Counted from the first letter of the stretch, positions 20,929 to 59,366 are shown. The stretch is 64,000 nt of DNA from Thermoplasmata archaeon (GCA_049300255.1 JBAQJJ010000049.1:43920-107919), one strand, 5' to 3'. Translations and numbers: made by a program. Notes: generated by a model from the sequence alone, not told the origin.

Positions 20929-20934
20929 TCGCCC

Positions 20935-21565: not shown

Positions 21566-23887
21566 TTAGAGTTGCCCACAATAGGGGCAGCGGACCGGTT
21601 CGGCAGGACGGGGGGCGCCGCAATAGGGACACGCCATCGTCCCCGGAGAACCCGTCGCCGCTCCTGCGAGCGGGGGCGGTGGGGGTGGCGGCATTTCGTA
21701 CGAGGGAGAAGGCCATCCATAGCTTCCCGGGGGTGGGATGATCGGACCGGTGGGCTGCTTGGTCCGTCCGAAGACTATGATCAATACGACCGCGACGGCC
21801 AGGGCTACTCCGATGATGACAATCAGGAACGAGACCGGGATGGGGCTAGTGGCGCTGTTCGATGGAGGCAGCAATGGCACGGGGCCAGAATACGTGTAGT
21901 TCCGAATCGCGGGGTTCGCGTCCGCCGCCAGGAACGCCGATGGATCGATCGACCCCCAGCCCGTGGTCGCGTCCCACCCGGGTCCGGCGGAAAACACGTA
22001 GTTGGATCCTTGCGTGATGTCCTCGAACGGATTGGCGGCTCCCGGATTCTGGGCATAGTAACTCGCGATCCGATAGAGCTCGGGGTCGATGTACCCGAAG
22101 AGATGATGGGAGCTGCCCGCGAGGACGGCTAGGATCCCGGCAAATACCGGAGCCGCGACGCTCGTGCCTCCGAGCAACGTGAAGTAGGTCCCCGAGGCAT
22201 TTCGCTCGACATAGGCAATCGTCGAATTCGCGACAAACGCCACATCCGGCTCGGCCCGACCGATCGACCCGGCGCCCTGCAGGATCGTAGCATTGACGAT
22301 CGCCGGCTGGGCCGCTGAATGCATCTGCCACGAAGGCTCGGGGTAGACGGCGCTGATGCCTCCCTCGCTCCCGCCGACCACGCCAAACGAGGTCTGATAC
22401 CAGGTCGCCTGGGAGAAGATCGTTCCGGCCCGCGCGTCAAAACTCGCATTGAGGTCCGTTCCGTTCCAGGTTCCTGCCGGTTCGCCTTGCAGTTCGATCT
22501 CGGTGCCGCCGACGGCGACATCGCCGAAGGATTCGAACGCCGCCGAGGCGGGCCATACAGGCCACTGTCCATCCTCACCCCCGGTGAGAGAATTGGGGGC
22601 ATTGCCCGCATCTCCGCTCGACGCGACCACGGTCGTTCCGATCGCCGCCGCATGCATCAGCTCGGCATCCCACATCGAATCGTTTAGGTCAGGGAGGCCA
22701 AAGGAGCCACTGACGACCGCCAATTGGGCCGCTCCATAGTTGTAGGAGAGAGCCGAGGCGAGGCCCTGCGCCAGATCGTCCGCGAGGTCCGAATAGGTCG
22801 GACTACCTACGAACACGCTACCCGGAATGTAGAAATTGTAGAGAGATGCCCCCGGCGCGAGACTGCCCGCCATTTCCAGATCGAGTGAGTTCTCGAGCTC
22901 GTCCGAAGTGTCGTCGCTCCAGTTCCCAAAGTAGCCCGGAGCAGGCGCAGTCGCGTAACCAGGGATCGCCACCGGAACACCCGTATACTGGGGGACGGGC
23001 CACCACGACGGAAGCGTGTCGTTGAAGTATTCTTGGAGGACGGTTGGATCCCACGGCGGCAGGTTCGCCCCGATCGTCACATTGTAAGCCGATGCCAGAA
23101 GAGTCGCGATCGCTTCGCCGGCCCCGAAGGAGGCATTCGGACTCGAAGAGTTGCTCGGAAACAGGTTGCTGACGCCGTACGCCTGCGTGAAATCGGATCC
23201 GAGGTACCATTGGTCACCCGTCGAGGGATCGACGACGAATGAGTTGGACGTGGTCGCGACCCGTCCCTCGCTCTGGGAGACGAGCGTAGCAGCCGTTGCC
23301 GATGCGACATTCGAAAGGTCGCTGAATCCTCCCGCGCCCATCACTTGACCCTCGAGCGAAGTGGGCAATGTCGGGGGCGACGTCGCGCTGTAGACCCAGT
23401 TTCCGGTTGGCGTACGGTACTGAACGAGCGTTGTGTGGAAGGCAGAATCAATCGTTTGCACCGCTAGTGTCGCGGTGACTCCCATCCTATCCGGAGTGGC
23501 CTGGATTCCGCGCCCCCCCAATTGCACGAGCGTGGACTCGACTGAGGCGACGGTTCCGGCCGTCGGGGCGAATCGTTGCTCGAACTCCGACTCGGTCAAG
23601 AAGTGTCGATACTCGATTGCCGACGGATCGGAAAGCTGAGTGAGTAGCGCATTCAGCCCCTCCAGATCGTGAGGGGCGAGCGTGAGGGTGATGTCGACGC
23701 TAGCGGCCGGCGGGAGCGGCTGAATCGCAACGCCGCGGGGGAGTGGGGTAGCATCGGTCGCGAAGCCTGGCGTGCTCGCGCGCGGGGCGACGGCGACGGC
23801 CGCGGCCGGGAGTGCCAATCCCGAAGCGGGAACCGCGAGCAGAAGAATGACGGTCAGGAAAACGAGTGCGAGCGTCGATCCGCGCAT
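21566..23887 (-). CDS. Sedolisin-like (S53) serine-carboxyl peptidase with pro-kumamolisin-type N-terminal propeptide, C-terminal TM anchor, Pro-rich linker and terminal C4 zinc ribbon
   Basis: Signal peptide; catalytic-Ser context LLGGTSVAAPVFAGILAV and SGDAG (S53-like); many N-x-S/T sequons. The C-terminus reads ...IPVSFLIVIIGVALAVAVVLIIVFGRTKQ.. PPPPPPP .. CPYCGAPRPAEPVRCPYCGQL. Confidence 0.75.
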   Translation of the reverse strand: MRGSTLALVFLTVILLLAVPASGLALPAAAVAVAPRASTPGFATDATPLPRGVAIQPLPPAASVDITLTLAPHDLEGLNALLTQLSDPSAIEYRHFLTESEFEQRFAPTAGTVASVESTLVQLGGRGIQATPDRMGVTATLAVQTIDSAFHTTLVQYRTPTGNWVYSATSPPTLPTSLEGQVMGAGGFSDLSNVASATAATLVSQSEGRVATTSNSFVVDPSTGDQWYLGSDFTQAYGVSNLFPSNSSSPNASFGAGEAIATLLASAYNVTIGANLPPWDPTVLQEYFNDTLPSWWPVPQYTGVPVAIPGYATAPAPGYFGNWSDDTSDELENSLDLEMAGSLAPGASLYNFYIPGSVFVGSPTYSDLADDLAQGLASALSYNYGAAQLAVVSGSFGLPDLNDSMWDAELMHAAAIGTTVVASSGDAGNAPNSLTGGEDGQWPVWPASAAFESFGDVAVGGTEIELQGEPAGTWNGTDLNASFDARAGTIFSQATWYQTSFGVVGGSEGGISAVYPEPSWQMHSAAQPAIVNATILQGAGSIGRAEPDVAFVANSTIAYVERNASGTYFTLLGGTSVAAPVFAGILAVLAGSSHHLFGYIDPELYRIASYYAQNPGAANPFEDITQGSNYVFSAGPGWDATTGWGSIDPSAFLAADANPAIRNYTYSGPVPLLPPSNSATSPIPVSFLIVIIGVALAVAVVLIIVFGRTKQPTGPIIPPPGSYGWPSPSYEMPPPPPPPLAGAATGSPGTMACPYCGAPRPAEPVRCPYCGQL

Positions 23888-23988: not shown

Positions 23989-24411
23989 ATGAGCCCGCCG
24001 GAATCGCCGTCCGAGCGGTGCATCTTCTGCGAGATCGTTGCTGGGCGATCCCCAGCGTATGTCGTGTATGAGGACCCGCACACGATTGCGTTTCTCGATC
24101 TCTTCCCCTTCACGCGTGGCCATCTGCTCGTCGTACCGAAACGCCATGTGCCCCGACTCACGGACCTGCGGAACGACGAGCATGCGGACTTCCTGCGCGC
24201 GCTCACCGCGGTTTGCCAGCGGGTCGAACGATTGTCGAGCGACTACAACGTCGCCATGAATCAAGGGGCCCGGGCGGGTCAGGTCGTTTTCCATCTTCAC
24301 TTCCACATCATCCCCCGTTACGGCGAGGCCAATCCCTTCGGACGACAGCCGCGGATTCGACTCGGCGAACCGGAGGCCCGCGAGCTAACGACCCAATTAT
24401 CTGCCCCGTGA
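23989..24411 (+). CDS. HIT-family (histidine triad) nucleotide hydrolase/transferase
   Basis: CIFCEIVAG... and the histidine triad HLHFHIIPR. I chose the internal Met as start. Confidence 0.85.
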   Translation: MSPPESPSERCIFCEIVAGRSPAYVVYEDPHTIAFLDLFPFTRGHLLVVPKRHVPRLTDLRNDEHADFLRALTAVCQRVERLSSDYNVAMNQGARAGQVVFHLHFHIIPRYGEANPFGRQPRIRLGEPEARELTTQLSAP

Positions 24412-25259
24412 AGGCCTCCGTGCCGAAATTTCGATCGCCCGCCGTCGCTGGGCAATTCTACGAATCCGACGGTCAGCGACTCGCCCGTCAGATCGAGAGC
24501 TGCTTCATGGACCCGCGAGGTCCGGGTCATCTTCCCCCCCATCATCGGAGCAAACCGCGGCAGCTACGGGCGGCCATCGTCCCGCACGCCGGATACCGCT
24601 ATTCGGGTCCCATCGCCGCCCACGTCTACGCCGCGATCGCGGCGGAAGAGCCGCCGACGACCGTCCTGATCCTCGGGGTAGATCATCACGGCGGTGCGGT
24701 CCGGGCGGCGACTTCGAATGTGGATTGGCTGACGCCCCTCGGGCCGGTCGAGATCGATAACGACGTCGTGGGCCAACTAGCGAAACCCCCGATCGTGATC
24801 GACGAAGAGACCCAGGCGCTCGAGCACTCGATTGAGGTTCAGCTCCCGTTCCTCCAGTACGTTCTGCCGCATCCTCGGTTCGTTCCCTTGATGGTCCGCT
24901 ACGGGTCCTACGACTCGCTTCACGAAATCGCCGTCGCGGTCCGGTCGGTCGTTGCCTCGCGCCCCGATATTCTGGTCCTGGCCTCTACCGATTTTTCGCA
25001 CTACGTACCAGCGTCCGAGGCCGATCGACTTGACCATCTGGCGATATCGGAGATCCTACGGTCCGACCCGAAAGGACTCTACTCCGTGGTGGCGCGCCAT
25101 GACATTTCGATGTGCGGCATCGCGCCGACGACCGTTCTTCTCGATGCGCTGCAGCATGAGTCGCTCACTCCGACGCTACTTCGCTGGGGTCATTCTGGCG
25201 AGGACACACCGATGCCCGAGGTGGTAGGGTATGCCGCGATCACGCTCACTCGGACGTAG
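24408..25259 (+). CDS. MEMO1/AmmeMemoRadiSam-system protein B family
   Basis: Motifs AGQFYE, VPHAGYRYSG, LILGVDHHG, STDFSHY. A GTG start overlaps the HIT stop (GTGA), indicating translational coupling. Confidence 0.75.
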   Translation: MKASVPKFRSPAVAGQFYESDGQRLARQIESCFMDPRGPGHLPPHHRSKPRQLRAAIVPHAGYRYSGPIAAHVYAAIAAEEPPTTVLILGVDHHGGAVRAATSNVDWLTPLGPVEIDNDVVGQLAKPPIVIDEETQALEHSIEVQLPFLQYVLPHPRFVPLMVRYGSYDSLHEIAVAVRSVVASRPDILVLASTDFSHYVPASEADRLDHLAISEILRSDPKGLYSVVARHDISMCGIAPTTVLLDALQHESLTPTLLRWGHSGEDTPMPEVVGYAAITLTRT

Positions 25260-28956: not shown

Positions 28957-29586
28957 ATGCGCATCATCGAGGTCTTCTACTCCCTGCAAGGGGAGGGGCC
29001 GCTCTCCGGGGTACGCACTTCGTTCATACGAACGGCGCGCTGCAATCTGCGTTGCACGTGGTGCGATACGACCTATTCCTTTGGTCCGGGGCGAGAGCGA
29101 TCGATCGAATCGCTGCTGCGCGAGGTCACTGGCCACCGAACGAGATATGCCTGCCTGACGGGCGGCGAACCGCTGCTTCAGCGGGAATCGGTCCGCCTTT
29201 TGCGAGCGCTCGCTCGGAAAGGAATGACCACCGTGGTAGAGACTGGCGGTTCGTTGGACGTCGCGCCGTACCTTTCCATCCCGCGCGTGATCCTTAGCGT
29301 TGACGTGAAGTGCCCTGCCTCGCGAATGGAATCGCATAACCGCTGGGAGAACCTGCCCCTCTTGCGACCGACGGACGTCGCAAAATTTGTCGTTCAGGAC
29401 CGAGCGGATTACCTCTACGCCAAACGGACCATGAAGCTCCATTCGACTCGCGCCCAGCTCGTCTTCCAGCCGGTTTGGGGAACGGACGCCGGACGTCTCG
29501 CGGATTGGGTTCTCGCCGATCACTTGGACGTACGCGTGCTCTTGCAAGAACACAAGGTTCTATGGGGAGACGTCGCCGGTCGCTAG
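28957..29586 (+). CDS. queE: 7-carboxy-7-deazaguanine synthase (radical SAM, QueE; archaeosine/queuosine precursor pathway)
   Basis: MRIIEVFYSLQGEG ... CNLRCTWCDT radical-SAM cluster motif characteristic of QueE. Confidence 0.85.
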   Translation: MRIIEVFYSLQGEGPLSGVRTSFIRTARCNLRCTWCDTTYSFGPGRERSIESLLREVTGHRTRYACLTGGEPLLQRESVRLLRALARKGMTTVVETGGSLDVAPYLSIPRVILSVDVKCPASRMESHNRWENLPLLRPTDVAKFVVQDRADYLYAKRTMKLHSTRAQLVFQPVWGTDAGRLADWVLADHLDVRVLLQEHKVLWGDVAGR

Positions 29587-33114: not shown

Positions 33115-33522
33115 ATGTCCAATCTTCTTGGTCAAATTTTGGACCGAAATATATCCGTGCATTGGAAGTTCGCGCGTTCGAGGAGACCGATGCCCGCGTT
33201 ATCCGTGACCTGTCACTCGTGTGCCCGGGAATTCCTGAGCGATGTGCCTCTCGATGGGCAGGGAGCCGGTCGCCCCGTTTCCGAGGGCCATGTGTTAGAA
33301 TGTCCACATTGCGGTATCCGGGACCCATACTTTTCTTCTGATTATCACGGGCCAGTTGTGGACGACCGTGACGACGATCAGGTCCCGAAGCGCGGATGGA
33401 GAGAGAGTCTCAGTACCCATCTTGCAGGGGTTTGGTGGCCCATGCTGGTGGTCCTCCTCCTGGTCACATCACTCGTGCTCGGGCACATGATCCACGACCG
33501 GTCAATCGTCATCGGACGTTGA
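33115..33522 (+). CDS. Zinc-ribbon protein with C-terminal TM helix (hypothetical)
   Basis: CHSC ... CPHCG Cys pairs followed by a hydrophobic helix WWPMLVVLLLVTSLVLG. Confidence 0.35.
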   Translation: MSNLLGQILDRNISVHWKFARSRRPMPALSVTCHSCAREFLSDVPLDGQGAGRPVSEGHVLECPHCGIRDPYFSSDYHGPVVDDRDDDQVPKRGWRESLSTHLAGVWWPMLVVLLLVTSLVLGHMIHDRSIVIGR

Positions 33523-33831
33523 AGAATATTCGGCGGATCCGTCGGGCGAACGAGGGGCTTGGAGGAGCCGGCCCCGGTCTTCTGCTTCCACGCTGGAAGG
33601 CAAGCCTGATGGATCCCACTCCGGATCGTGGGTATCCTCTCGATCCCGCAAGTCATTTTGGCCGTCCGGGCCGTGGCTTCCTTCATCGGAGCCACCCTCG
33701 TGTGCGGATTGTAACGCCAACCCAGGGTTGCCCGAACGATGCCGCGCGGAGGACGCACGGGACTCGGTCGCCGAGCCGGACTCGCCTCGGGGAGTTATAT
33801 CCCCCCATTGTTCCCCGGCGCCACGAGCGAA

Positions 33832-34536
33832 ATGAAACAGAAAGTTCCCCCTCGTCCCCGACGAATCCTCATCCTCGATATCGGAGGAACCCATGTGCGG
33901 GTGGCCCTTACCTCCCCTATGCGCACCCTACGTATCTCGTCCGGGCCCACGATGGACCCGCAGACCATGTTGCGGAAGATCAAGAAGTGGCTGAAGGGGG
34001 AGCGGTACGATGCCGTTTCAGTGGGATATCCGGGGGTCGTGCTCCGTGGTCGGATCGTCCACGACCCGGCAAATCTGGGTAAGGGCTGGGTCGGTTTTGA
34101 CTTTCGAAAGGCGTTCGGACGCCCGACCCAGATCGTCAATGATGCTGCGATGCAGGCGCTGGGGAGCTACGAGGGCGGGAAGATGCTGTTCCTTGGGCTG
34201 GGCACTGGATTGGGGACTGCGATGATCCTCGATGGAGAGATCGAGCCGATGGAGCTGGGCCACCTCCCGTACAAGAAGGGAAAGTCGTACGAGGATTTCG
34301 TCGGAGAGCGGGGTCGTCGCGCTCTGGGCCGCAAGAAGTGGTCGAAGGAAGTCTTCGAAGTGGTGAAGAGACTCTCGGACGCCCTCGAGCCGGATTATGT
34401 GGTCTTGGGCGGTGGAAATGTACGTAAGCTCAAGGTTCTGCCTCCCGGCGCCCGCCGAGGAGATAATCGCAAGGCCCTCGTCGGAGGGGCGCGCCTCTGG
34501 ACCCGCGCCGGGGTCCGTGGGATGAAAAGGACGTAG
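33832..34536 (+). CDS. ROK-family glucokinase (polyphosphate/ATP glucokinase-like)
   Basis: ILILDIGGTHVRVAL ATP-binding motif, ROK-like core. I chose the internal Met start (MKQKVPP...). Confidence 0.75.
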   Translation: MKQKVPPRPRRILILDIGGTHVRVALTSPMRTLRISSGPTMDPQTMLRKIKKWLKGERYDAVSVGYPGVVLRGRIVHDPANLGKGWVGFDFRKAFGRPTQIVNDAAMQALGSYEGGKMLFLGLGTGLGTAMILDGEIEPMELGHLPYKKGKSYEDFVGERGRRALGRKKWSKEVFEVVKRLSDALEPDYVVLGGGNVRKLKVLPPGARRGDNRKALVGGARLWTRAGVRGMKRT

Positions 34537-34557
34537 CCACGAGGCTTTGCCACACAC

Positions 34558-35346
34558 CTAGGTGGGTCGCGAGGATGCGGCGGTCGTAACCGCCGTCGGA
34601 AGTGCCGCGGCTGCCTCTCGATCGAGAAACCAGTGCGTGGGTCCCGCACTTCGTACGAGGCTCGCGGGCAGTTCATGGGTTCCGCGGGGAAAGGACCGGA
34701 AGATAGCCTCCACCGCCTTCTCCTTGTCCCTCCCCGACACGAGGAAACACACCTCCCTGGAGGACGCGAGCGCGGGAAGGGTCAGCGTGAGTCGGGGTAG
34801 AAACGGGGGCTGTCCGGCACGCCGAATCGCGACGACCGTTTGGCGCTTCTCGCGCAAGGCCCGCCCTCGAGGAAAGAGAGAAGCCGTGTGACCGTCGGGG
34901 CCAATGCCGAGCAGCACGACATCGAACCGGGGCGGCGCACGGCTGTCCAGTCGAATTGGCCCGAGCGCACGAGCATAATCACGCGCCGCTGCCGAGGGAG
35001 GACGGACCTCCCCGCGCATCCGATGCACGCGTCGGCGCGGCACGGACACGTGAGAGAGGAGTGATTCCCACACGGTGCGGTAGTTGCTCGCCGCGGCGCG
35101 GGGGCCGACACACCGTTCGTCGCCAAAGAACACCTCGGTGTCCTTCCAGGGAAAGCGCATCCGGTACTCCCGCGCGAGGAGCTCATACAGGCCTTGGGGA
35201 GTGTGCCCGCCGGCAACCACCCAGGAGAACACGCCTCGCACCCGAACAGATTCCCTCGCCTTGAGGTTCAGATGTCGTGCCAAAGCCGAGGTGGCCGAGG
35301 GGAGCGTAGGGTGAATGTGCAGGACGCGCGCTACGGCGGGCTCCAC
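34558..35346 (-). CDS. pgl: 6-phosphogluconolactonase
   Basis: SWVVAGGHTPQGLYELLA, GDERCV, LLGIGPDGHTASLFP motifs. The GTG at 35346 gives about 260 aa and a 16-bp overlap with the zwf stop; the ATG at 35457 is the alternative. Confidence 0.8.
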   Translation of the reverse strand: MEPAVARVLHIHPTLPSATSALARHLNLKARESVRVRGVFSWVVAGGHTPQGLYELLAREYRMRFPWKDTEVFFGDERCVGPRAAASNYRTVWESLLSHVSVPRRRVHRMRGEVRPPSAAARDYARALGPIRLDSRAPPRFDVVLLGIGPDGHTASLFPRGRALREKRQTVVAIRRAGQPPFLPRLTLTLPALASSREVCFLVSGRDKEKAVEAIFRSFPRGTHELPASLVRSAGPTHWFLDREAAAALPTAVTTAASSRPT

Positions 35347-36788
35347 TGGTGTCCCCACTGCTGGACGAGCGCCTGCGCCTCGGGCGGCCCCCAGGTATTT
35401 GCCGGATAGAAGACGATCGGAGGGGGATGTTCTAGCAGCGGAGCGTACATTCGCCACGACTCCTCGACCTCGTCCGCTCGAACGAACAACGTGGGGTCGC
35501 CCAGTATCACATCGATCAGGAGCGTCTCGTATCCGTCCGGGAGTTCTCCGAAGACATCGGCGTAGTGGAATTTCATACGGTTGGTCTGCACGCGGATCTC
35601 CCGCCCCGGTACCTTGATCTCGAAGGCGAGCTCGAAGCCCTCGTCCGGTTGGATCAGGATCGAGATCCGATCCGGGTTCGCGTCATACTCCCCTTCCGCT
35701 TGAAAGAACGAGACGGGTGGTGCTTTGAACGTCAGCACGACCCGGGTGGACTTGGCCGGAAGGCGCTTGCCCGTTCGTACAAAGAATGGGACGCCCTGCC
35801 ACCGCCAGTTGTCGACCTTGAGGCGAAGGGCGATGAACGTCTCGGTCTCGGAAGTGGAGGAAACGCCCGGCTCGTCGCGGTACGCCTTCACCAACTGTCC
35901 GTCCACGGTGCCCGCGACGTACTGCCCCCGAACGACGTCCTTCGCCCGTAACGGGACCACGCTTTCGAGCACCTTGACCTTCTCGTTCCGTATCGCTTCC
36001 TCATCTTTCGTGGCGGGGGGCTCCATCGCGATCAACGAGAGGAGCTGCGTCACATGGTTCTGCACCATGTCGCGCAGTGCCCCCGACCCGTCGTAGTACT
36101 GGGCCCGACCTTCGAGACCGAGCCGCTCGGCGACGGTGATCTCCACTTTCTCCACCTGGGCGCGATTCCAGACCGACTCCACGAACATGTTGGCGAACCG
36201 GAAGACCATCAGGTTCTGGACCGTCTCCTTGCCTAGATAGTGGTCGATCCGAAAGATCTGCGACTCTTGGAAATTCTTCAGTAGGAGTTGATTGAGCGCT
36301 TGGGCCGATGCCAAGTCGCGTCCAAACGGCTTCTCCACCACCACTCGGGTCCACCCCGGACTCGTGTGGAGACCGGCGTGGCCGATCCCTTCGAGCGTAG
36401 GGGTGAATGCCTCGAGAGGGAGCGCGAGGTAGAAGATCCGGTTGCCCGGGAGTCCATGGGCTTCCTCGGACGCTTCGATGCGCGTGCGAAGGTCGTCGTA
36501 CCCGGTCGGTGACTCGTCGTCCAGTTTGTGATACAAGAGCGTCGAGGCGCAGAACTGTTGGATCTCCGCATCGCTCCCCAATTTCTCGGCCCTCAGGGAT
36601 TGCATGGCCATGGCGCGGAACGTAGCGTCGTCCATCGGACGCCGCGCGATTCCGAGCACGATACTCCCGGCCGGGAACGCCCCCTTCGCCGCGAGACGAA
36701 AGAGCACGGGCATCAGCTTGCGCTGAAACAAATCCCCGGTCGCCCCGAACACGGCCATAAGGTGCTTCGCCGGTACGGGGTTTTCCAT
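35331..36788 (-). CDS. zwf: Glucose-6-phosphate 1-dehydrogenase
   Basis: MAVFGATGDL NAD(P)-binding motif and the G6PD active-site region (RIDHYLGKE). I placed the start at MENPVPAK, which has a GGGAGAG Shine-Dalgarno-like element 8 nt upstream. Confidence 0.9.
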   Translation of the reverse strand: MENPVPAKHLMAVFGATGDLFQRKLMPVLFRLAAKGAFPAGSIVLGIARRPMDDATFRAMAMQSLRAEKLGSDAEIQQFCASTLLYHKLDDESPTGYDDLRTRIEASEEAHGLPGNRIFYLALPLEAFTPTLEGIGHAGLHTSPGWTRVVVEKPFGRDLASAQALNQLLLKNFQESQIFRIDHYLGKETVQNLMVFRFANMFVESVWNRAQVEKVEITVAERLGLEGRAQYYDGSGALRDMVQNHVTQLLSLIAMEPPATKDEEAIRNEKVKVLESVVPLRAKDVVRGQYVAGTVDGQLVKAYRDEPGVSSTSETETFIALRLKVDNWRWQGVPFFVRTGKRLPAKSTRVVLTFKAPPVSFFQAEGEYDANPDRISILIQPDEGFELAFEIKVPGREIRVQTNRMKFHYADVFGELPDGYETLLIDVILGDPTLFVRADEVEESWRMYAPLLEHPPPIVFYPANTWGPPEAQALVQQWGHQWSPP

Positions 36789-36790
36789 GC

Positions 36791-37699
36791 TCAGCTCTCC
36801 CGCTTGACTTCGTGCCCGCCGAACTTGTTCCGCATCATCGCGAGGAGGCGCTCGGTGAACGGATCCTGCTCCCGCGAGCGTAACCGCTGTTGCAACGACA
36901 ACGTGATCACGGGAGCCGGAATGTTGAGGTCCATCGCCTCGGTAACGGTCCAGCGCCCTTCTCCAGAGTCCGCGACCCAGGGTTCGATACCCGCGAGCGT
37001 TGGGTTCTCCGCCAGAGCGGATTCGGTCAATTCCAGCAACCAGGAACGGATCACGCTCCCGTAGCGCCACACCTGGGCGACTTGGTGAAGATCGAGCGCG
37101 AAATCGGTCTTCCCCTGGATGACGGCGAAGCCTTCCGCGTAGGCTTGCATCATGCCGTACTCGATCCCATTGTGTACCATTTTCACAAAGTGTCCGGAGC
37201 CGACGGCTCCCATGTGACCCCAACCTTTCTGCGGGCCGGGCGCCAACGTCTCCAGGATGGGTCGGATCCGCTCGACATCCGCCTTCTCTCCGCCGACCAT
37301 CATCGAGTACCCCTCGGCGAGCCCCCAGATCCCACCGCTCGTACCGACATCGACGTAGCGGAACCCCCAGCCCTTCACGAGCGCCGCTCGCCGCAACGTA
37401 TCGCGATAGTAGGAGTTCCCTCCGTCCACGATCATGTCACCGGGCGCGAGCAGCGCGTGGAGCTCTTCCAGGGTTTGGTCGACCGGGGCCCCGGACGGAA
37501 TCATGAGCCAGACGATCCGGGGAACCGCCAACTGACGGACCAGCTCGGCCAGCGAATAGGCGCCGACCGCACCCTGCGCCACCACGGCATCGACGGTCGC
37601 CCTCGTCCGAGCGAATCCGACGACTCGGTGGCCCCCCTTGACCAGACGCTCCGTCATGTTCGCTCCCATCTTTCCCAATCCGACCATTCCTAGTTCCAT
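36791..37699 (-). CDS. gnd: 6-phosphogluconate dehydrogenase (decarboxylating), short Gnd-like form
   Basis: MVGLGKMGANM N-terminal Rossmann motif, 302 aa, typical of the about 300-aa gnd subfamily. Its stop is 3 bp after the zwf start. Confidence 0.85.
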   Translation of the reverse strand: MELGMVGLGKMGANMTERLVKGGHRVVGFARTRATVDAVVAQGAVGAYSLAELVRQLAVPRIVWLMIPSGAPVDQTLEELHALLAPGDMIVDGGNSYYRDTLRRAALVKGWGFRYVDVGTSGGIWGLAEGYSMMVGGEKADVERIRPILETLAPGPQKGWGHMGAVGSGHFVKMVHNGIEYGMMQAYAEGFAVIQGKTDFALDLHQVAQVWRYGSVIRSWLLELTESALAENPTLAGIEPWVADSGEGRWTVTEAMDLNIPAPVITLSLQQRLRSREQDPFTERLLAMMRNKFGGHEVKRES

Positions 37700-37709
37700 G
37701 GTTCTTCTC

Positions 37710-38324
37710 CTACCCTGACGCGATGCCGGCGAGCGCTAACTCTTCCCCCAAGTGCTCGGGGTCTCGTACCTGTAAGGTATGGAGGCCCAGTCGAGCCGCC
37801 GCGGCAATATTCTCGGGCCGATCGTCGAGAAAGAGGGTCTCTTCAGGCGTGCGTTGAGTGAGCGTCAGCGCGTTTTGGAAGGCCGCCGGTTCCGGCTTCC
37901 GCCAGCCGGTGTAGCACGAGCTGAAAAAGACGTGGAAGACTTCCTTCAACCCGAACGCCTGGATCCGATATTCGTTGAGCATCCGGGATTCGTTGTTCAA
38001 TGCCGCCATGACATACCTACCTTCACCTCGGACTGCTCGAGCTGCCGCCAGCGCGGCGACGTTGCGACGGGAGCGGTCCCGCATGAACTGGAGATAGGTT
38101 TCCGGGGAAAACGACCGGGGCGCGTAGAAGACCGTAGCCTCAAGATAGCCGGGGACGTCAAGCCGTCCGGTCTCGAACGCGGCGTCCACGAGCTGATGGC
38201 GCCGTTCCAATTCGTTCGGGTCCAATTCGAAATGGGCAGCGGCCGCGGCCCGCGCCCTGTGGTCCCAGCCATTCGACAGCAACACACCTCCGACGTCCCA
38301 GAGCAACAGGGAGACGTTAGCCAT
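37710..38324 (-). CDS. HAD-superfamily hydrolase/phosphatase
   Basis: Motif I region LLWDVGGVL and motif IV FLDDRPENI; embedded in the pentose-phosphate operon. Confidence 0.65.
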   Translation of the reverse strand: MANVSLLLWDVGGVLLSNGWDHRARAAAAAHFELDPNELERRHQLVDAAFETGRLDVPGYLEATVFYAPRSFSPETYLQFMRDRSRRNVAALAAARAVRGEGRYVMAALNNESRMLNEYRIQAFGLKEVFHVFFSSCYTGWRKPEPAAFQNALTLTQRTPEETLFLDDRPENIAAAARLGLHTLQVRDPEHLGEELALAGIASG

Positions 38325-41073
38325 GGAGCGCCTCCTGGAGTATCTGGAGGCCGCCCGCAACATCTGCGCCCAAGTCGATCCGAAGGACGCGACGGTGCTT
38401 CTGCTGGAGGGCCTGGTAGTCGCCCACCGACTGAGAACGGATCAAGTCTCCAAAGGAGTAGTTGGCGCCGGGGACGGGGATGTCCTGGGTCGGAGTGTCG
38501 ACGAGCTGGAGAAACAAGCCGGTGTTCGGGCCGCCCTTGTGCAGCTGCCCGGTGGAGTGGAGGAAGCGCGGCCCGTACCCGAAAGTGGTGGCAACGTGGA
38601 GTCGCTCCAGGAGCCCCCGGCGCAGCGTCTCGAGCGCGTTCGAAGTGGCCGGGCGGGGCGCGAGATACGCTTGGATCCCCACGTAGTCCCCGGGTCGGCA
38701 CGTACTAATCCACCGCCGGAACTCCGCCACCAGCACGCCGCGATCGGCGCTCGGCACGGTGACGATACCGGACGCTCCGGAGGACCCACTGGGCGGGGCC
38801 ATTACTTTGCGGGCGAGCTCCTTTGCGAGCTCTACGTCCGGCTGGTCGTAGGGGTCAATGCCGAGGATCATTCCCGCACTGGCCACCGCCACCTCCCATC
38901 GGAAGAACTCCTCGCCGACTGCGAGTGGGTCGGACACCCGGACCCGAACGACAGGAAAACCCGCCGTCTCGAGTCGGGACGTGTGGGCCCGCAGCGCGGT
39001 GTCCGGCGCCGTACCGACCTGGATCTCGACGAACAGACGATCCGAGCCGTACTGCTCGACCGAGACCGGGGGTTCGTCGACGACGGGGACGATGCCCTTG
39101 CCTATCTTGCCAGTACTTTCTGCCACCAATTGCTCGACCCAGATCGGAAACGGAGCGAACCCTGCCGCTGCGTAGAAGGTCAACTTGTCCCGACCGCCCG
39201 CGCCCAGTTCTCCAAGGACCGCCCCCAAGGAGAGTCCGGGGTTCTCGTCGACCCGGAGCGATGGCGCGCAAGCTTCCGCCATCGTCCAGGCGCGGTCAAG
39301 CAAAGCGCGGACATCCAGACCGATGAGAGCAGCGGGGACGAGTCCGAACATCGTGAGCGCCGAATACCGGCCCCCTACGGTCGGGAGCGCTAGGAATACC
39401 TCACGGAATCCTTCGCCCCGGGCCAGCTTCTCTAGGGAGGTACCCGGATCGGTGATCGCCGCAAAGCATCGGCCCGGCGGAACCCCGCTCACCCGAAGCT
39501 GCTCCCAAAAGTAACGATAGAAGGAGAGGGGCTCGAGGGTCGTGCCCGATTTGCTCGAGACGAGGAAGAAAGTGTGCGCGGGATCGATCCGGGCGCGCAC
39601 GGCGGCGATCGCATCGGGGTGAGTGCTGTCGAGCACGAGCAGCTCCGGATACCCGGGTCGGTGCCCGAAGAGGCCCCCTAACACGTCCGGGGCGAGGCTC
39701 GAACCGCCCATGCCGAGTACGATGACATGACGAAATCCCTCGGAACGGATCTGATTCGCAAAATGCTCGAGACGGGCCACCTGCTCGTGCATCATCTCTG
39801 GGAGCTGGAGCCAGCCCATTCGCTCTGCCACGTCCGTAGGCGGCGCGGCGGGCCACAGCGTCGCGTCGCGCTTCCAAAATCGCTCCGCGACCCTCTCGCT
39901 CTGCCAGCTCAGCAAGCGAGCCGCGACTCGGGCGCCGTCGCTCCCCAGGGTCCAGGACTGGGGGTCCACCCGACCGACCAAGATCGCCTCCTTCTTGGTC
40001 GCCAGCGAACGGAGGAGGAGCGCGTAGGAATCCGAGAACAGCGCGACGCCCTCCGTTTGCAGATCCTCGGTGATTTGATCGAGGTTGATCCCCACACTCG
40101 CGGCCCGTTGGAGCAGCTGCCGCGCGTCGGAGATCCCCTCCCCGAGCGTGTCTCCGCGTACCACTCCGTGGTCTTCGAATGCTGTGATAGTGGCCGGTGG
40201 GATCGTATCCACGGTCTCGGGTCCGATCAGCTCCTCGACGTAGAGGGTGTCCCGGAAATGTGGGTCCTTGGTGCTGGTGCTCGCCCAGAGGACCCGCTGC
40301 GGCCGCGCCCCTCTCGCGCTCCACGGCGTGAACGACGCCCCGTGGAAGATTTCCTGAAATCGCGCATAGATCACCCGTGCGTTGGCGAGCGCGATCTTGC
40401 CCTTCAATACGGACGCATCGGGGGCGCTAGAGGCCTCGAGCGCTCGATCGACGGCCGTATCGATCCGACTCACGAAGACGGAGGCGACGGAGGCGACGCG
40501 CGTTGGGTTGTTAGCACGCTCTATCCCGCGTAGATAGGCTTGCGCGACGGCTTCGTATTGGGGAAGGGAGAACAGGAGCGTGATGTTGACGTTGATTCCT
40601 TCGGCCAGCAGCGCCTCGATCGCCGGTACCCCTTCCTTCGTTCCGGGAACTTTGATGAGAATGTTCGGTCGGTCGACCTTCGCCCACAAGCGCTGGGCCT
40701 CCGAAATCGTACCGGCGGTATCGTGAGCAAGGCCGGGGGCGACTTCCAGACTGACGAACCCGTCCTGTCCCCGCGTACGGTCGAAGACGGAGCGCAACAC
40801 ATCGGCCGCCAAGCGCACGTCTTCCACGGCCAAGCGCTCGTAGAGCTCCGCGGGGCCGAGGTGAGGATCCTGGGCCAGGATCTCTTGGAGCGAAGCGTCG
40901 TAATCGTGACTCCCGGCGATGGCCTTCTCGAAGATAGTGGGATTGATCGTAACTCCCGTAATCCCGTCCTTCTCGACCATCCGTTTCAGTTCGCCGCTGG
41001 TGAGAAGGCTTCGGCGAATGTAGTCGAGCCAAGGCGATTGACCCTGAGCCAGCAAGGCGGCCAGGCCGGTCAT
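38317..41073 (-). CDS. Bifunctional transaldolase / glucose-6-phosphate isomerase fusion
   Basis: 918 aa. The N-terminal about 350 aa are transaldolase ([23 protein letters not shown]). The C-terminal about 550 aa are a PGI (sugar isomerase SIS-type motifs [13 protein letters not shown]). Confidence 0.85.
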
Positions 41074-43085
41074 GGAATGCTCACCCGCACGCGCTTCCCA
41101 AGCACCCGCTCCGCTGACTCAAGCACATGATCCACGGTGAATCCGAATTCTCGCTGGAGGATCGGTCCCGGCGCGGAAGCACCGAAATGGTCGATCCCGA
41201 TGGATTCGCCCGTCGCGCCAACGTATCGAGACCAACCCAGCGTACTGCCGGCTTCGACGGAGACTTTCGGGAGGTCCCGCGGCAGGACCGAATCTCGATA
41301 CGCCAGGGATTGTTCGTCGAATATTTTCCAACACGGCAGCGACACGACGCGAGCTTGGATCCCCTTTTCGACCAACCGCCCCTGCGCTTCCAATACGAGT
41401 CCTACTTCCGAGCCCGTTGCAATCAGGATCAATTCCGGACGACCGGAGGGGGCTTCGGACAGCACGTACCCTCCACGTGGGGTTCCCTCCGCTATCGGGT
41501 ATCGGTTCGGGTCCAAAACCGGGACCTTCTGTCGAGTGAAAACTAGCGCCGTCGGGCCCGCACGCTCGACTGCCACCCTCCATGCTGCGACGCTCTCATT
41601 CGCATCCGCGGGCCGAAACAATGTCAGGCCCGGAATCGCGCGCAGGCTGGTCAACTGCTCGATCGGTTGGTGAGTGGGCCCGTCCTCGCCCATTCCGATG
41701 CTGTCGTGCGTGAAGACCAAGACGATGTGAGTCTGCTGCAGCGCCGCGAGTCGAATCGCCCCGCGCGCGTAGTCGGAGAAGACCAGGAATGTTCCGCCAT
41801 AGGGGAGAAGGCCCCCGTGCAGCGCCATGCCGTTGAGGCAGCCGACCATAGCGTGTTCGCGAACACCAAAGTGGAAATTACGTCCGAGAGCGTCGGAAGG
41901 GGAGTAGTCAAGCGAGCCGGGCAACAGGGTCTTCGTCGAGGGAGAAAGGTCAGCGGCGCCACCGAGCAGCGCCGGGAGTTTGGGCGCCAGTGCGTCAAGC
42001 ACTTTTTGGGAAGCATCTCGGGTCGCCATCGGACCGTCGCTCGGCTTGAATGTGGGCAGGGCCGAATCCCAACCCGACGGGAGCGTCCCGGTGAATTGGG
42101 CTTCAATCTGATGTGCGAGCTCCGGTTGCTGGGTGCGGAGTCGATCTCTAAGGGCTTCCCACTCCTGCTGCCACTGAGCACCCCGGCTCATCGCGCCCCG
42201 AAAGTGTGTTCGAACTTCCTCGGGTACGAGGAACGTCGGTTCCAACGGCCAGCCGAGTTTCTCCTTGGTCGCTTTCAGGTTTGCCGGACCCAGCGCCTCA
42301 CCGTGAGCCTCCCGCGTGTCTTGGACCGGGCTTCCGTACCCTATGTGGGTGCGAACACAAATGAGCGAAGGTCGCTTGGTTTCGTCTCGCGCTTGGCGCA
42401 AGGCGGTTTCGATCGCGGTCAAGTCGTTCCCATCGGATACACGCAACACTTGCCAGCCGTAGGCCTCGAAGCGTTTCGGAACGTCTTCCGTGAACGCCCA
42501 GATGGTGGGTCCTTCGAGCGTGACGTGGTTGTCATCGTAGAGGTAGATCAGCTTGCCCAGCCCGAGGGTTCCCGCGAGCGAAGCGGCCTCGGATGCGATC
42601 CCCTCCATCAGGTCCCCATCCGATACGATCCCGTAGGTGTAGTGGTCGACGAGCGGAATGCCGTCTTGATTCCAAGTCGCAGCAAGATGCCGCTCGGCGA
42701 TCGCCATCCCGACGCCCATCGCGAACCCTTGCCCCAATGGACCAGTCGTCGCCTCGACTCCCGCGGTTCGACCATACTCCGGGTGCCCCGGGGTGCGGCT
42801 ACCCCACTGACGAAATTGTTGGAGCTCCGCGATCGGCAGGTCGTAACCGGTGAGGTGGAGCAATGCGTAGAGTAGGGCGGACCCGTGCCCCGCCGAGAGA
42901 ACGAATCGATCTCGATTCGGCCACTGCGGATTGGCCGGATTGTGCCGCAGAAATCTATCCCAAAGAACGTAGGCCATTGGAGCGGCCCCAAGCGGTAGCC
43001 CAGGATGGCCGGACTTCGCCTTCTCCACCGAGTCCACAGCCAGGAATCGAATCGTGTTGATACAGGTCAGGTCCAAGTCGTCCAT
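41070..43085 (-). CDS. tkt: Transketolase
   Basis: 671 aa. TPP-binding motifs ([18 protein letters not shown]), transketolase C-terminal domain. The stop overlaps the tal-pgi start by 4 bp. Confidence 0.92.
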
Positions 43086-43102
43086 GTTGACTGCGGGAAC
43101 AC

Positions 43103-43119
43103 AGCATATAGGAAAAGCT
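43103..43119 (-). promoter_or_regulatory. AT-rich TATA-like element (minus-strand sense TTTTCCTATATGCTGT) about 20-35 nt upstream of the tkt start
   Basis: Stands out against 65% GC; the position is consistent with an archaeal TATA box and a short leader. Confidence 0.35.
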
Positions 43120-43313
43120 GACGGGCTGGGATACCAAGTTCAATCCTACACGCGGGCGTCGCCAAGTGAAAGGTCCGAAACCCCCGGGATAAGTAGGCCC
43201 GGGTGCTCCCACGAGTGGCGATGGATTCCTCGCGAGTGCGAGAGCCCGAAAGGACGACGACGGGATTGTGCGGGAATGGTCGCGGATGTAACATGATTCA
43301 CGAGGTGGTGTAG

Positions 43314-44249
43314 ATGGGAGAATCGGTACGTACCGTTAGTCGAAAGTTCCGGGGCGCGGAAACGATGGAAGGAGCCGGGGTCCGCCTCAAGCGGATGTTC
43401 GGAAACAACGAAGTCCCACTCCTCGACCCCTTTCTGCTGCTCGATAACTTCGGGTCGACCAACCCGGCGGACTACGTGAAGGGGTTCCCGTGGCACCCCC
43501 ACCGCGGGCTCGAGACCGTTACGTACATGCTCTCGGGGAAGACCGAGCATGAAGACTCCTTGGGCAATCAGGGCGTCATCGACTCTGGCGATGTTCAGTG
43601 GATGAGCGCGGGAAGCGGCATCATGCACCAAGAGATGCCCAAGCGCACGGAGGGGCTACTCTCGGGTTTTCAACTTTGGGTGAATCTTCCTCACAGCCTC
43701 AAGATGGAGACGCCGTCCTATCGGGGGGTCGGGGCTGTGGACATCCCCGTTGTTCGCGGAGAGGATGGCCGCGTCGTGAAGGTGATCGCCGGTTCGTATG
43801 ACCGCGTCGAAGGGCCAGTCCGGCACATTCCGGTGGACCCGCTCTACCTCGATGTCACGCTGCCCCCCAATACCGAGTTTCAGCACCCGGTCAAGCAGGG
43901 TTACACCGTGTTCGCCCAGGCCATCGATGGGGCGGGTTGCTTCGATCCGATGGGCGCCCCTGCGGTGGGGGAGGAACCCAAGCCGCTCTACAGTGGCTCC
44001 ATCAGTCCTTCCAATGAATCGGTTTCTCGCCCCGGCCATACCGTGCTGTATGGAGACGGGGACACCGTGCGCATCCATGCGCAGGACGGAGGGCTGCGTT
44101 TCATTCTAGTATCGGGCAAGCCGCTGCACGAACCGGTCTCTTGGTACGGCCCGATTGTGATGAATACGCGGGAAGAGATCTTGGAGGCCGTGACGGACCT
44201 TCGAAAGGGAACGTTCATCCGGTCGCAGAAGGTCATCAACGAGGCGTGA
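43314..44249 (+). CDS. Pirin-family bicupin protein
   Basis: Cupin His motifs (HPHRGLETVTYML ... MHQEMP), 311 aa, typical pirin architecture. Confidence 0.85.
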   Translation: MGESVRTVSRKFRGAETMEGAGVRLKRMFGNNEVPLLDPFLLLDNFGSTNPADYVKGFPWHPHRGLETVTYMLSGKTEHEDSLGNQGVIDSGDVQWMSAGSGIMHQEMPKRTEGLLSGFQLWVNLPHSLKMETPSYRGVGAVDIPVVRGEDGRVVKVIAGSYDRVEGPVRHIPVDPLYLDVTLPPNTEFQHPVKQGYTVFAQAIDGAGCFDPMGAPAVGEEPKPLYSGSISPSNESVSRPGHTVLYGDGDTVRIHAQDGGLRFILVSGKPLHEPVSWYGPIVMNTREEILEAVTDLRKGTFIRSQKVINEA

Positions 44250-53715: not shown

Positions 53716-55785
53716 CTAAGTGAGGCTAAATCGAGCGATTTCATCATTGTAGAGAAAGTCGGTCGCGAACAGGAATCCGGAATCCGGCGCGACCGCTAGA
53801 AAGTAAGGGTGAGGGGCCGCGTAGTACGTGATCGAGTTGAAGAACGTGCTCGCTGAAATCTCGTACACCCCACCGTTTTCGGGATCCGCCACAAAGAGGT
53901 TCCCACCGTCCACGACCACCCCAGTGGGATTTCCACCGAGGTAGATGGTCGTTACTACCTGGCCATTCGACACGTTCACGACGTCGAGGTCACCTGTGCC
54001 TGTGCTCGTCACGAAAAGGTTTCCTTGATCGACCGCAAGCTGCTGAGGCTGGAGGTCCACCGAAAAAGTGTTGACCACTTTATGCGAGGCACCAGAAACG
54101 ACGGATACTGAGCCAGAGTACGAATTCGACACATAGACGGTTCCGTGGCTCGCGAAGACGCCGACCGGCCCATGGCCCACCAGAGTCGCGGCCGTAACCA
54201 GATAAGAATGGTCATTGATGAACATCAAGGAATTCGAGGCGAAATTGGCCACGTCGACCGTGTGATCTACCGGGTCGTACGAAATTCCTTCGGGCTGCAA
54301 TCCGACCGGGATTGTGGCGATGACTTTGTTGGAAGCCACAGCGATGACAGAAACCTCGGCTGCAAGCGAGTCGGTGACGTAGATGGCATTTGTTCCGGAA
54401 TCATAGGCCACGCCATAGGCGCCAGCGCCGACCGTGAGGACATGAACGACCTTGTTCGTCGCCTCGCCGATTACCGCCACGGTTCCCGAGCTATAGCGTG
54501 CGACATATTCCGTCCCCGTTGGAGTCGTCGCGAGTCCGGCTGGTTCTGTTGTGTACAACTTCGCAACCGGGCTGAGAGGAGGTCCGCGAATATCGTCAAT
54601 CGTGTTTTCCTCCTGATCGGGCACGTACATTGCACCGTTCGATTGGTCGTAGAACGGCGTCTGGGGGTCCTCGAATGTGTTAATCGATGCGAGCACCCCC
54701 GAGCCGCTGTCGATTTCGACCGACACTCCAGTTGTTACCAAAAGTCCCTCCAGAGGGTAGTATCCAATGTTAAAATCCGCACAGTCACTGTCCACGTAGA
54801 ACGTGTGAGTCACTGTTAGATCGGCAATTTGCGTGACCGCCGAACAGTCTTCGCCCCCAACCCCTCCGTAATCCACTACGTAAACATCTGTATTTGCGGC
54901 ATCGTAAACAATCCCAACAGGATAGTTTCCAACCTTTATCGTCTGCACAACCGTGGTCATAGCCGCGTTGACGACGATTACTTTGTTGCAGTAAGAGAGC
55001 GTAATGTAGACGAACCCGTTGGTCGGGTCGAACGTCATCTGGTTCGAAAAGCAATTGCTTCCTAGTGGGATGCGGGCGGTCACCGCATAAGTGCTGGGGG
55101 AAATGGCGCTCAAGTTCGAGCTTTCGTCCGTGACATAAATCAGATTGGAAATCGGATTGTAGAGCGTCCATGTCGGATCAGGCCCAACCCTAATCGACCG
55201 TGTAACGGTAAGCCCATGGATTACGGTCACATTGTCACCACCTCGATCAGCGACGAACGCGTCGTTTGTCTTCGGGTCTACGGCCACTCCCCACGGCTCC
55301 GTCCCCACTGGATCTGTAGCTAGCGGCTCGCTCGTCTTGCTCGAAAAAATCGATACAGTGTTGCTATAGATGTCCGTCACGTAGATTCTTCCCGAGCTCG
55401 GGTCTACGGCCCCATACTGAGGCCCCTGCCCCAAACTAATGGACCGCCCCGCGATCGCTGCGCTCGGTCCTTGAGCCAACGCCTGTTTCCCGGTGGGAAT
55501 CCCCCCGGAACGCACGTCGGCCCCAGAAACGACATGGCCAAGAAATGCAGGCTGGATCGAGATCGCAAGTAAGAAAATCGGAATCGAAATTACTAGCCAC
55601 CCGGACCGTTGCGCGGTGACTCTGTGTCGATTCTTCACAATTGTTCGAAACTCGCGTATTTGGACAAACCGGTTAAAGCCAGCGATGTGTGCCGAATCCG
55701 GTTCGGCCGTGCCTTCGCCGTAACACATTCGGGCGGCGTCGATGGCAGGGTCGCTGGCAGAGCCAAGAAAGTCTATGTAACTCAC
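53716..55785 (-). CDS. YVTN beta-propeller repeat surface protein with N-terminal membrane anchor
   Basis: 689 aa; repeated ..VYVTD/ IYVTN.. about 40-aa units, N-terminal hydrophobic helix (WLVISIPIFLLAISI); the start may be an internal Met or Val. Confidence 0.78.
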   Translation of the reverse strand: MSYIDFLGSASDPAIDAARMCYGEGTAEPDSAHIAGFNRFVQIREFRTIVKNRHRVTAQRSGWLVISIPIFLLAISIQPAFLGHVVSGADVRSGGIPTGKQALAQGPSAAIAGRSISLGQGPQYGAVDPSSGRIYVTDIYSNTVSIFSSKTSEPLATDPVGTEPWGVAVDPKTNDAFVADRGGDNVTVIHGLTVTRSIRVGPDPTWTLYNPISNLIYVTDESSNLSAISPSTYAVTARIPLGSNCFSNQMTFDPTNGFVYITLSYCNKVIVVNAAMTTVVQTIKVGNYPVGIVYDAANTDVYVVDYGGVGGEDCSAVTQIADLTVTHTFYVDSDCADFNIGYYPLEGLLVTTGVSVEIDSGSGVLASINTFEDPQTPFYDQSNGAMYVPDQEENTIDDIRGPPLSPVAKLYTTEPAGLATTPTGTEYVARYSSGTVAVIGEATNKVVHVLTVGAGAYGVAYDSGTNAIYVTDSLAAEVSVIAVASNKVIATIPVGLQPEGISYDPVDHTVDVANFASNSLMFINDHSYLVTAATLVGHGPVGVFASHGTVYVSNSYSGSVSVVSGASHKVVNTFSVDLQPQQLAVDQGNLFVTSTGTGDLDVVNVSNGQVVTTIYLGGNPTGVVVDGGNLFVADPENGGVYEISASTFFNSITYYAAPHPYFLAVAPDSGFLFATDFLYNDEIARFSLT

Positions 55786-59197: not shown

Positions 59198-59203
59198 GCG
59201 TCA

Positions 59204-59238: not shown

Positions 59239-59366
59239 GCACCCTTCACCCCCGGATGCCCCTCGACGAGAACCAATGCCCGATCGGCCCGGATGAGTCG
59301 CCCTCAGGTAATCTGGAAGTCACGTGGCCGCTCACGATTTAACTGGGGGCCGGCCTCGGGCCGACC

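Follow-up and report, generated by a model that had tools for sequence, protein, structure and literature searches.

In the textbook view, the oxidative pentose-phosphate pathway is missing from most archaea, which make their pentoses through the ribulose monophosphate (RuMP) pathway. Here we analyzed a 64,000-nucleotide stretch of DNA from a Thermoplasmata archaeon (GCA_049300255.1 JBAQJJ010000049.1:43920-107919; hereafter the window) that carries, at 33.8-43.1 kb, a cluster of sugar-phosphate genes of bacterial type. It encodes transketolase (tkt), a fusion of transaldolase and glucose-6-phosphate isomerase (tal-pgi), a HAD phosphatase, 6-phosphogluconate dehydrogenase (6PGDH; gnd), glucose-6-phosphate dehydrogenase (zwf) and 6-phosphogluconolactonase (pgl), with a ROK-like sugar kinase gene on the opposite strand. 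We consider it likely that the cluster is a domesticated bacterial operon for sugar-phosphate oxidation, captured long ago, vertically inherited since then and able to support a cyclic pathway. Contrary to the textbook picture, a widespread clade of soil archaea thus has a canonical bacterial pathway as one conserved operon.

Many archaea have neither of the two pentose-phosphate branches and use the RuMP pathway instead (PMC9700705). The only complete pathways on record by 2018 came from a few genomes of Nanohaloarchaea and Woesearchaeota (PMC5864196). These are the earlier instances of complete pentose-phosphate pathways in archaeal genomes (PMC5864196), but they belong to other phyla (DPANN), and they are set beside the Thermoplasmata clade here by published reports, not by sequences. 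Haloferax volcanii, with the haloarchaeal oxidative pathway and its 'archaeal Zwischenferment', is likewise an archaeon that oxidizes glucose 6-phosphate to ribulose 5-phosphate. In a literature search of limited coverage, we found no paper that describes the cluster in Thermoplasmata or Thermoplasmatota.

A bacterial precedent for pathway cycling is found in Gluconobacter oxydans, which runs its pentose-phosphate pathway partly as a cycle and in which the genes for transketolase (GOX1703) and transaldolase (GOX1704) adjoin (PMC4588806). The points in common with the archaeal locus are the neighboring tkt and tal genes, the short-form 6PGDH and the re-isomerization of fructose 6-phosphate to glucose 6-phosphate (PMC4588806), a step that we predict for the archaeon. 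G. oxydans differs in being an alphaproteobacterium that is not closely related in sequence to the Thermoplasmata clade. Its cycling is due to the absence of phosphofructokinase. We take GOX1704 to encode a Tal/PGI fusion as well.

The gene families, their order and the Tal-PGI fusion recur in clusters of Acidobacteriota (Terriglobia), Latescibacterota and Melainabacteria, which carry a homologous short ROK-like kinase gene in or beside them and are phylogenetic neighbors of the archaeal genes. They differ in that their Tal-PGI proteins are only 43-59% identical to the archaeal ones, in that no HAD gene lies between tal-pgi and gnd, and in their longer intergenic gaps, whereas in the archaea the junctions overlap and a putative archaeal TATA-like promoter is present. 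Public records already give these canonical enzymes their correct names, and this type of operon is common in soil bacteria. The locus therefore offers no new enzyme, mechanism or type of system; what it offers is a well-supported, clade-wide case of archaea that took over a bacterial operon in ancient times. It is a clean and easily analyzed example of operon-scale transfer followed by full domestication. Its interest for archaeal metabolism and soil ecology is moderate, and mechanistically it is unsurprising. The cluster should be considered in metabolic reconstructions of terrestrial Thermoplasmatota.

An initial annotation, made from the sequence alone, had placed all seven genes here, with overlapping or tight junctions on the minus strand and an AT-rich promoter-like box upstream of tkt. 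A six-frame list of open reading frames (ORFs) and scans with hidden Markov models confirm each of the genes, and the tight junctions and the box are present as well. On the minus strand, the genes are transcribed in the following order (bit scores are given with the family cut-off): tkt comes first (41070-43085, 671 aa; TIGR00232, 875 bits vs 682), followed by tal-pgi (38317-41073, 918 aa; NF007080, 1169 vs 712), the gene for the HAD-IA phosphatase (37710-38324, 204 aa; Pfam Hydrolase and HAD_2, and TIGR01509, 47 vs 29), gnd for a short-form decarboxylating 6PGDH (36791-37699, 302 aa; NF007161, 447 vs 271), zwf (35331-36788, 485 aa; TIGR00871, 563 vs 401) and pgl (34558 to 35346 or 35358, with a GTG start; TIGR01198, 193 vs 124). 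The ROK-like kinase gene (33832-34536, 234 aa; Pfam ROK, 33.8 vs 22.9) lies convergently on the plus strand, with its stop codon 21 nt from that of pgl.

The junctions are very tight. The tkt and tal-pgi genes overlap by 4 nt, and tal-pgi and the HAD gene by 8 nt (the HAD start at 38324 agrees with 204-aa public gene calls on identical DNA). Gaps of 10 nt separate the HAD gene from gnd and of 2 nt the gnd stop from the zwf start (TGA-GC-ATG). Between zwf and pgl the overlap is 28 nt if pgl starts at the GTG farther upstream and 16 nt if it starts at the other one; in the gene call of a related locus (L083) it is 16 nt. All six genes are thus on one strand with overlaps or gaps of at most 10 nt, their order is kept across species (12 loci and L083), and terminator-like sites show no excess within the cluster (4 found vs 7.6 expected). 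The promoter-like box CAGCTTTTCCTATATG (43105-43120, minus strand) is located 20-35 nt upstream of the tkt ATG. Packed in this operon-like manner behind a single promoter-like box, the genes are probably co-transcribed.

The host was taken to be an archaeon in the initial annotation, and the surroundings of the cluster leave this unchanged. Archaeal marker genes stand on both sides, namely those for EgsA (NAD(P)-dependent glycerol-1-phosphate dehydrogenase; 476 bits vs 413), archaeal-type LeuRS, RqcH_arch, Hel308, UPF0179 and SMC_prok_A with ScpA and ScpB; an Orc1/Cdc6-like ATPase is also among the flanking archaeal genes. Proteins identical to the Tal-PGI and Zwf of the window are filed as 'MAG: Thermoplasmata archaeon', where MAG stands for metagenome-assembled genome. 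Because the window comes from such a genome and chimeric contigs occur, an artefact of assembly or binning, that is, a bacterial contig or a bacterial fragment joined to archaeal DNA, has to be considered. However, the markers on the two sides lie within one compositionally uniform 64-kb stretch, where the GC content is flat at ~0.62 without a step at the cluster. Furthermore, the same Tal-PGI protein occurs on three separately assembled contigs (24.9 kb from NCBI, 47.6 kb from Logan and a third of 173.6 kb). Locus L001, from a different species (87% Tal-PGI identity), shares the neighborhood from RqcH to EgsA around the cluster, and a 2.0-Mb contig (ERZ25039507:contig_6243) carries the same cluster arrangement. 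Given the identical proteins on three contigs and the shared neighborhood in L001, a chimeric or bacterial contig is very unlikely, and we give an artefact next to no weight. Matches in an EgsA search bore no label more specific than 'Thermoplasmata archaeon'. For comparison, the type genome of the Lutacidiplasmatales has ~69% GC vs ~62% in the window, and a paper on this order does not mention the pentose-phosphate pathway.

To describe how widely the cluster is distributed, we surveyed one genome per GTDB species and used the 80 best loci by Tal-PGI similarity, which also supplied the sequences for the trees. Fifteen of these loci are from Thermoplasmata, mostly from soil MAG projects. For all 12 with enough flanking DNA the order is tkt, tal-pgi, HAD, gnd, zwf and pgl, and the three shorter loci are fragments that agree with it. 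The kinase gene is nearby in 11 of the 12 and convergent with pgl in 10. The HAD gene lies between tal-pgi and gnd in every Thermoplasmata copy that reaches past tal-pgi, and is absent at that position from all bacterial clusters sampled. Side by side with this, the Anaerolineales locus L064 encodes a HAD homologue, 38% identical to the archaeal protein, 2.4 kb downstream of tal-pgi, which indicates that the association of HAD genes with tkt/tal-pgi clusters is also found in bacteria. In that locus a 150-aa ORF (9529-9981) lies between tkt and tal-pgi, and a 615-aa ORF together with the HAD homologue (13266-15854) follows tal-pgi.

Searches of larger protein collections gave the same picture of a single, diverse archaeal group. 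A Tal-PGI search returned 105 top clusters (90% non-redundant, 58-100% identity) in which every named protein is from a Thermoplasmata archaeon; bacterial names do not occur before rank 106. The view that Tal-PGI fusions are a bacterial feature is consequently no longer strictly true. Similarly, every named protein among the best 120 Zwf matches (at least 66% identity) is from a Thermoplasmata archaeon. The Thermoplasmata that carry the cluster have diverged down to ~60% Tal-PGI identity. The divergence of EgsA runs parallel to that of the cluster genes, as vertical co-inheritance predicts, and close relatives of both are found on the same large contigs. For instance, the proteins of a 269,747-bp contig are 95% (EgsA), 86% (Tal-PGI) and 89% (Zwf) identical to those of the window, and those of a 699,666-bp contig 93%, 89% and 88%, respectively.

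To place these genes relative to bacteria, we built neighbor-joining trees from Kimura distances with 60-100 bootstraps (50 replicates in an earlier run with Biopython). Trees were made for six genes, and in each of them the archaea form a single clade. Its support is 100 in the trees of Tal-PGI, Tkt and Gnd, 92 in that of Pgl, 72-79 in that of Zwf and 74 in that of the kinase. Two bacterial loci are the sister group (100) of this clade for Tal-PGI. One of the two, L016, has a gene for a sigma-54 enhancer-binding protein as well, which identifies it as bacterial. A wider bacterial clade (100) with loci of Anaerolineales (L064), Melainabacteria (L018) and Terriglobia (L020) encloses the archaea and their sisters, and about 60 further bacterial sequences from many phyla fall outside it. 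The Tkt tree again places the archaeal clade (100) inside a clade (100) with L020 and L064. For Gnd, a tree rooted at the midpoint joins the archaea with L018 and L020; the support of 100 there is that of the archaeal clade and not of this grouping. Nesting within bacteria is well shown for Tal-PGI and Tkt.

Gene order and the closest Zwf relatives point the same way. The genes tal-pgi, gnd, zwf and pgl occur in the archaeal order in four bacterial loci (L025, L044, L066 and L069), with tkt just upstream in L025, L044 and L069, and L018 and L079 likewise have tal-pgi, gnd, zwf and pgl in that order. Homologues of the kinase are encoded in or beside five bacterial clusters (L044, L073, L075, L067 and L021), and those within Acidobacteriota clusters are 51-61% identical. 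When Zwf was compared with 1.84 billion representative proteins, no relative beyond the query's own group was more than 51% identical, and the named members of the ten best Zwf clusters are all bacterial. The suggestion of the initial annotation that the module is bacterial in type and ancestry is thus supported by the Tal-PGI, Tkt and Gnd trees, by the shared operon order and by the Zwf relatives.

One may instead suppose that the pathway is ancestral in archaea, or that it passed from archaea to bacteria, as unrooted trees do not formally give the direction and the archaeal clade is large and internally deep. On the other hand, the fusion and the operon order are spread over Acidobacteriota, Planctomycetota, Nitrospirota, Methylomirabilota, Chloroflexota, Melainabacteria, Latescibacterota and Pseudomonadota, whereas the 80 best GTDB loci contain only one archaeal clade, which lies several well-supported nodes deep inside the bacterial tree. 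Most archaea are moreover described as lacking the oxidative pathway (PMC9700705), with few DPANN exceptions by 2018 (PMC5864196). An archaeal origin is therefore highly improbable in our judgment.

Another question is the age of the transfer. The cluster could have been acquired horizontally in recent times, as a genomic island that only this organism has, which is essentially how the initial annotation saw it. Its bacterial-type genes do stand between unrelated host genes, and the genomic neighborhood varies between species, with the flanking genes of the window shared only by the closest relative, L001. However, the comparison of codon usage and GC content at third codon positions (GC3) that the initial annotation had proposed did not set the cluster apart from its flanks. 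The relative synonymous codon usage (RSCU) is closely correlated between the cluster and 23 flanking genes (r = 0.957), the genes of the cluster taken one by one stay within the range of host genes, and GC3 is 0.754 in the cluster vs 0.716 in the flanks (Mann-Whitney p = 0.18). We rejected recent transfer as judged by composition, given that GC profile, GC3 and RSCU gave no signal. A gene order shared by at least 15 species-level genomes, down to ~60% Tal-PGI identity, also disagrees with a recent island, as do the nearest bacterial proteins, which are only 51-59% identical. No integrase, tRNA or repeat boundary adjoins the cluster, and scans of the window for island boundaries and riboswitches returned no tRNA or Rfam match.

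The upstream sequence of tkt adds to this. A core, CA(G/C)CTTTTC(C/G)T(A/C), is found 22-35 nt before the tkt ATG of the window. Seven further Thermoplasmata species (L001, L003, L004, L005, L007, L009 and L015) have it at an equal distance, although the sequence around it has diverged. Other genes of the window also have AT-rich boxes at this distance from their start codons (approximately -25 to -35), and a promoter scan of 33400-43400 gave no sigma-70-like promoter. We interpret CAGCTTTTCCTATATG as a probable archaeal element of the type BRE/TATA (B recognition element and TATA box), from which a leaderless or near-leaderless transcript would start, and its conservation again speaks against a recent island. 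Separately, we tried CTTTTCCTA as a general motif of the window and rejected it, with 8 matches (up to one mismatch) vs 5.6 expected.

The recent-island explanation is thus largely refuted, and we leave it only a slim chance. Host codon usage, a probable archaeal promoter and an added HAD gene indicate instead that the transfer is old and the operon domesticated. What remains of the acquired module proposed at first is its bacterial ancestry, borne by trees, operon order and Zwf relatives; its recent or idiosyncratic nature does not survive the host-like codons and the presence in at least 15 species-level genomes. The alternative named at the outset, vertical inheritance in an archaeal clade, describes half of the history: descent is vertical inside the clade and bacterial before it.

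In the scenario that we favor, an ancestor of a diverse, mostly soil-dwelling Thermoplasmata clade would have taken tkt, tal-pgi, gnd, zwf, pgl and the ROK-like kinase gene from bacteria, probably in one event and probably en bloc. Present-day relatives of the donor would be found in Terriglobia/Acidobacteriota, Chloroflexota (Anaerolineales), Melainabacteria and some unclassified soil bacteria. Since then the operon would have been inherited vertically, adopted host codon usage, gained an archaeal TATA-type promoter and received the HAD phosphatase gene between tal-pgi and gnd.

The protein sequences are consistent with working enzymes. The tkt product has the three transketolase domains. The Tal-PGI protein matches NF007080 end to end (residues 2-917 of 918), with the Pfam domains TAL_FSA at the N terminus and PGI at the C terminus. 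It retains the transaldolase catalytic residues D17, E110 and K141 and the isomerase motifs GGRYS, QPDVE..K and LHSTGQ.HKGG. Across 80 aligned Tal-PGI sequences, D17, E110, K141, G568-R569, Q744, K751 and H839-Q843 are invariant, and position 748 is E in 69 and Q in 11. As both domains carry conserved catalytic residues, we predict that the protein has both activities.

Zwf has the domains G6PD_N and G6PD_C, and the motifs GATGDL and RIDHYLGKE are seen in its translation. Gnd also passes TIGR00872 (378 bits vs 297) and combines an NAD_binding_2 domain with a truncated 6PGD C-terminal domain; its nearest solved structures are the short 6PGDHs 6vpb, 4e21, 10gw and 8ihe. The names of its two families, NF007161 and TIGR00872, disagree on the cofactor, and the relatives of short Gnd include NAD+-dependent enzymes. 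In both Zwf and Gnd, the Rossmann fold has an arginine after strand beta-2 (in Zwf within 'GIARRP') and no acidic residue there, which hints at a preference for NADP+ and hence at NADPH as the probable output. Pgl matches PF01182 with 208 bits, and nagB deaminases score only 38 bits vs 193 for TIGR01198. The closest structure to the HAD protein is 3cnh, a 'hydrolase family protein' (E = 2e-50), followed more distantly by the glucose-1-phosphatase YihX. Our best guess, held with low confidence, is that it acts as an overflow or entry phosphatase for sugar phosphates.

The kinase was first called a ROK glucokinase, and of this name the ROK part stands: the protein passes the general Pfam ROK model, and only that one, and has the DIGGT ATP motif. 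The zinc motif is absent, and the protein stays below the equivalog cut-offs for polyphosphate-glucose phosphotransferase (PPGK), which is its best NCBIfam match (NF045942, 75 bits vs 250), and for glucokinases (ROK_glcA, 25 bits vs 260). Its nearest structure, 3lm2, is itself only a 'putative kinase' (E = 1e-76; residues 10-226 are aligned), and the second nearest is 1woq, a polyP/ATP glucomannokinase. The glucokinase identity is thus not upheld. The start is more likely to be the ATG at 33832, giving 234 aa, than position 33739 as first annotated, because 3lm2 aligns from residue 10 of the shorter form and because a TTATAT box (33795-33800, plus strand), ~32-37 nt upstream of this ATG, would fall inside the longer ORF.

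From family membership and conserved residues, the following pathway can be proposed. The kinase would make glucose 6-phosphate as a putative entry step, its substrate and phosphoryl donor both being predicted. Zwf, Pgl and Gnd would then convert glucose 6-phosphate into ribulose 5-phosphate, CO2 and two reduced nicotinamide cofactors. Tkt and the transaldolase domain would recycle the pentose phosphates with the help of Rpe and Rpi, presumably encoded elsewhere. Finally, the fused isomerase would turn fructose 6-phosphate into glucose 6-phosphate and so allow a partially cyclic pathway like that of Gluconobacter oxydans.

An operon of this kind could also serve mainly biosynthesis, providing ribose 5-phosphate, erythrose 4-phosphate and some NADPH, and not a cyclic catabolic oxidation of glucose. 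Wherever these enzymes occur, they supply pentoses and erythrose 4-phosphate; the cluster has no glycoside hydrolase gene beside it in the window itself, and nothing in the window shows that other glycolytic routes are absent. However, the kinase gene has been kept beside the operon, and GH15 glucoamylase genes adjoin it in three relatives (L083, L012 and L013), which fits glucose as the input and points to free glucose as a feedstock. In addition, the fusion of the isomerase to the transaldolase supplies the step that closes the cycle, for which G. oxydans is the precedent (PMC4588806). The two roles are not mutually exclusive. A mainly biosynthetic operon is a serious possibility that we rate below a cyclic-capable one.

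The GH15 glucoamylase/glucodextranase genes of these relatives are located at 17551-22757 in L083, 16354-18396 in L012 and 16798-18885 in L013. A GH57 gene also lies beside the operon in L083, and in L013 the GH15 gene lies between pgl and the kinase gene. These neighbors suggest a larger glucan-to-pentose module in part of the clade.

Several points weigh against a captured, cyclic-capable operon. The trees are distance-based and midpoint-rooted, and the bacterial sample was picked by Tal-PGI similarity. For Zwf, Pgl and the kinase, archaeal monophyly (72-92) is accompanied by a nesting in bacteria that is only consistent with the data. In L014 and L016, the bacterial loci closest in Tal-PGI, tal-pgi is directly followed by zwf, and none of the sampled bacteria has the exact archaeal arrangement including the HAD gene. 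The architecture of the donor is accordingly unobserved, and the operon may have been assembled stepwise instead of being transferred en bloc. Co-transcription, cofactor preference and kinase substrate are predictions from sequence. Lastly, among the ~50 ORFs of the 64-kb window, smaller ones included, the families Ribul_P_3_epim, Rib_5-P_isom_A and LacAB_rpiB revealed no rpe, rpiA or rpiB. Because none of these lies anywhere in the window, the locus holds the full oxidative branch together with Tkt, Tal and PGI, but it is not the complete pentose-phosphate supercluster that had been announced.

A bolder version of the preferred origin can be formulated. A single ancient capture of the whole operon might have been the founding event for a large clade of soil Thermoplasmata, giving it a bacterial-style NADPH and pentose economy that replaced the RuMP pathway or ran beside it and that aided life in aerobic, carbohydrate-degrading soil niches. 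In that case, the clade-specific HAD phosphatase might add a regulatory or overflow step that is new and that bacteria do not have at this place in the operon. In this extended form we find the idea doubtful.

Other parts of the window hold features of their own. A 773-aa protein with a pro-kumamolisin activation domain, of the acid-active, sedolisin-type peptidases, is encoded at 21566-23887 (minus strand) and fits a protein-degrading lifestyle in acidic soil. Just upstream of the smc-scpA-scpB cluster (16340-21561) there is a stretch of nearly 3 kb (13483-16340) that contains only short ORFs, with a DUF6036 nucleotidyltransferase-like protein (15534-16091) as the sole family match. An ORF for AmmeMemoRadiSam system protein B (Memo-like; 24213-25259, plus strand) is followed a few kb away by a radical-SAM ORF (28957-29586, plus strand); the two may be parts of an AmmeMemoRadiSam system split by the LeuRS gene.

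The Hel308 ORF (55609-58119, plus strand) and the Orc1/Cdc6-like ORF (57938-59197, minus strand) converge and overlap by ~180 nt, so that one of the gene models is probably doubtful, either at the end of the Orc1-like ORF or at the C terminus of Hel308. The interval 59198-59366, between the Orc1/Cdc6-like gene and a plus-strand gene for an isocitrate/isopropylmalate dehydrogenase, holds the AT-rich palindrome TATAAGAATTCTTATA just upstream of the Orc1/Cdc6-like gene. An imperfect copy, ATAGGAATTCTT (59203-59235), is located near it. The palindrome may serve as an operator or promoter, or in origin recognition. Finally, two YVTN/NHL beta-propeller repeat proteins of 1003 and 689 aa are encoded on the minus strand at 10472-13483 and 53716-55785, with a lower GC content (0.55-0.57). 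Their genes are compositional outliers, among the most codon-deviant in the window (RSCU r = 0.55 and 0.75 vs other genes) and possibly encode surface proteins or represent more recent acquisitions.

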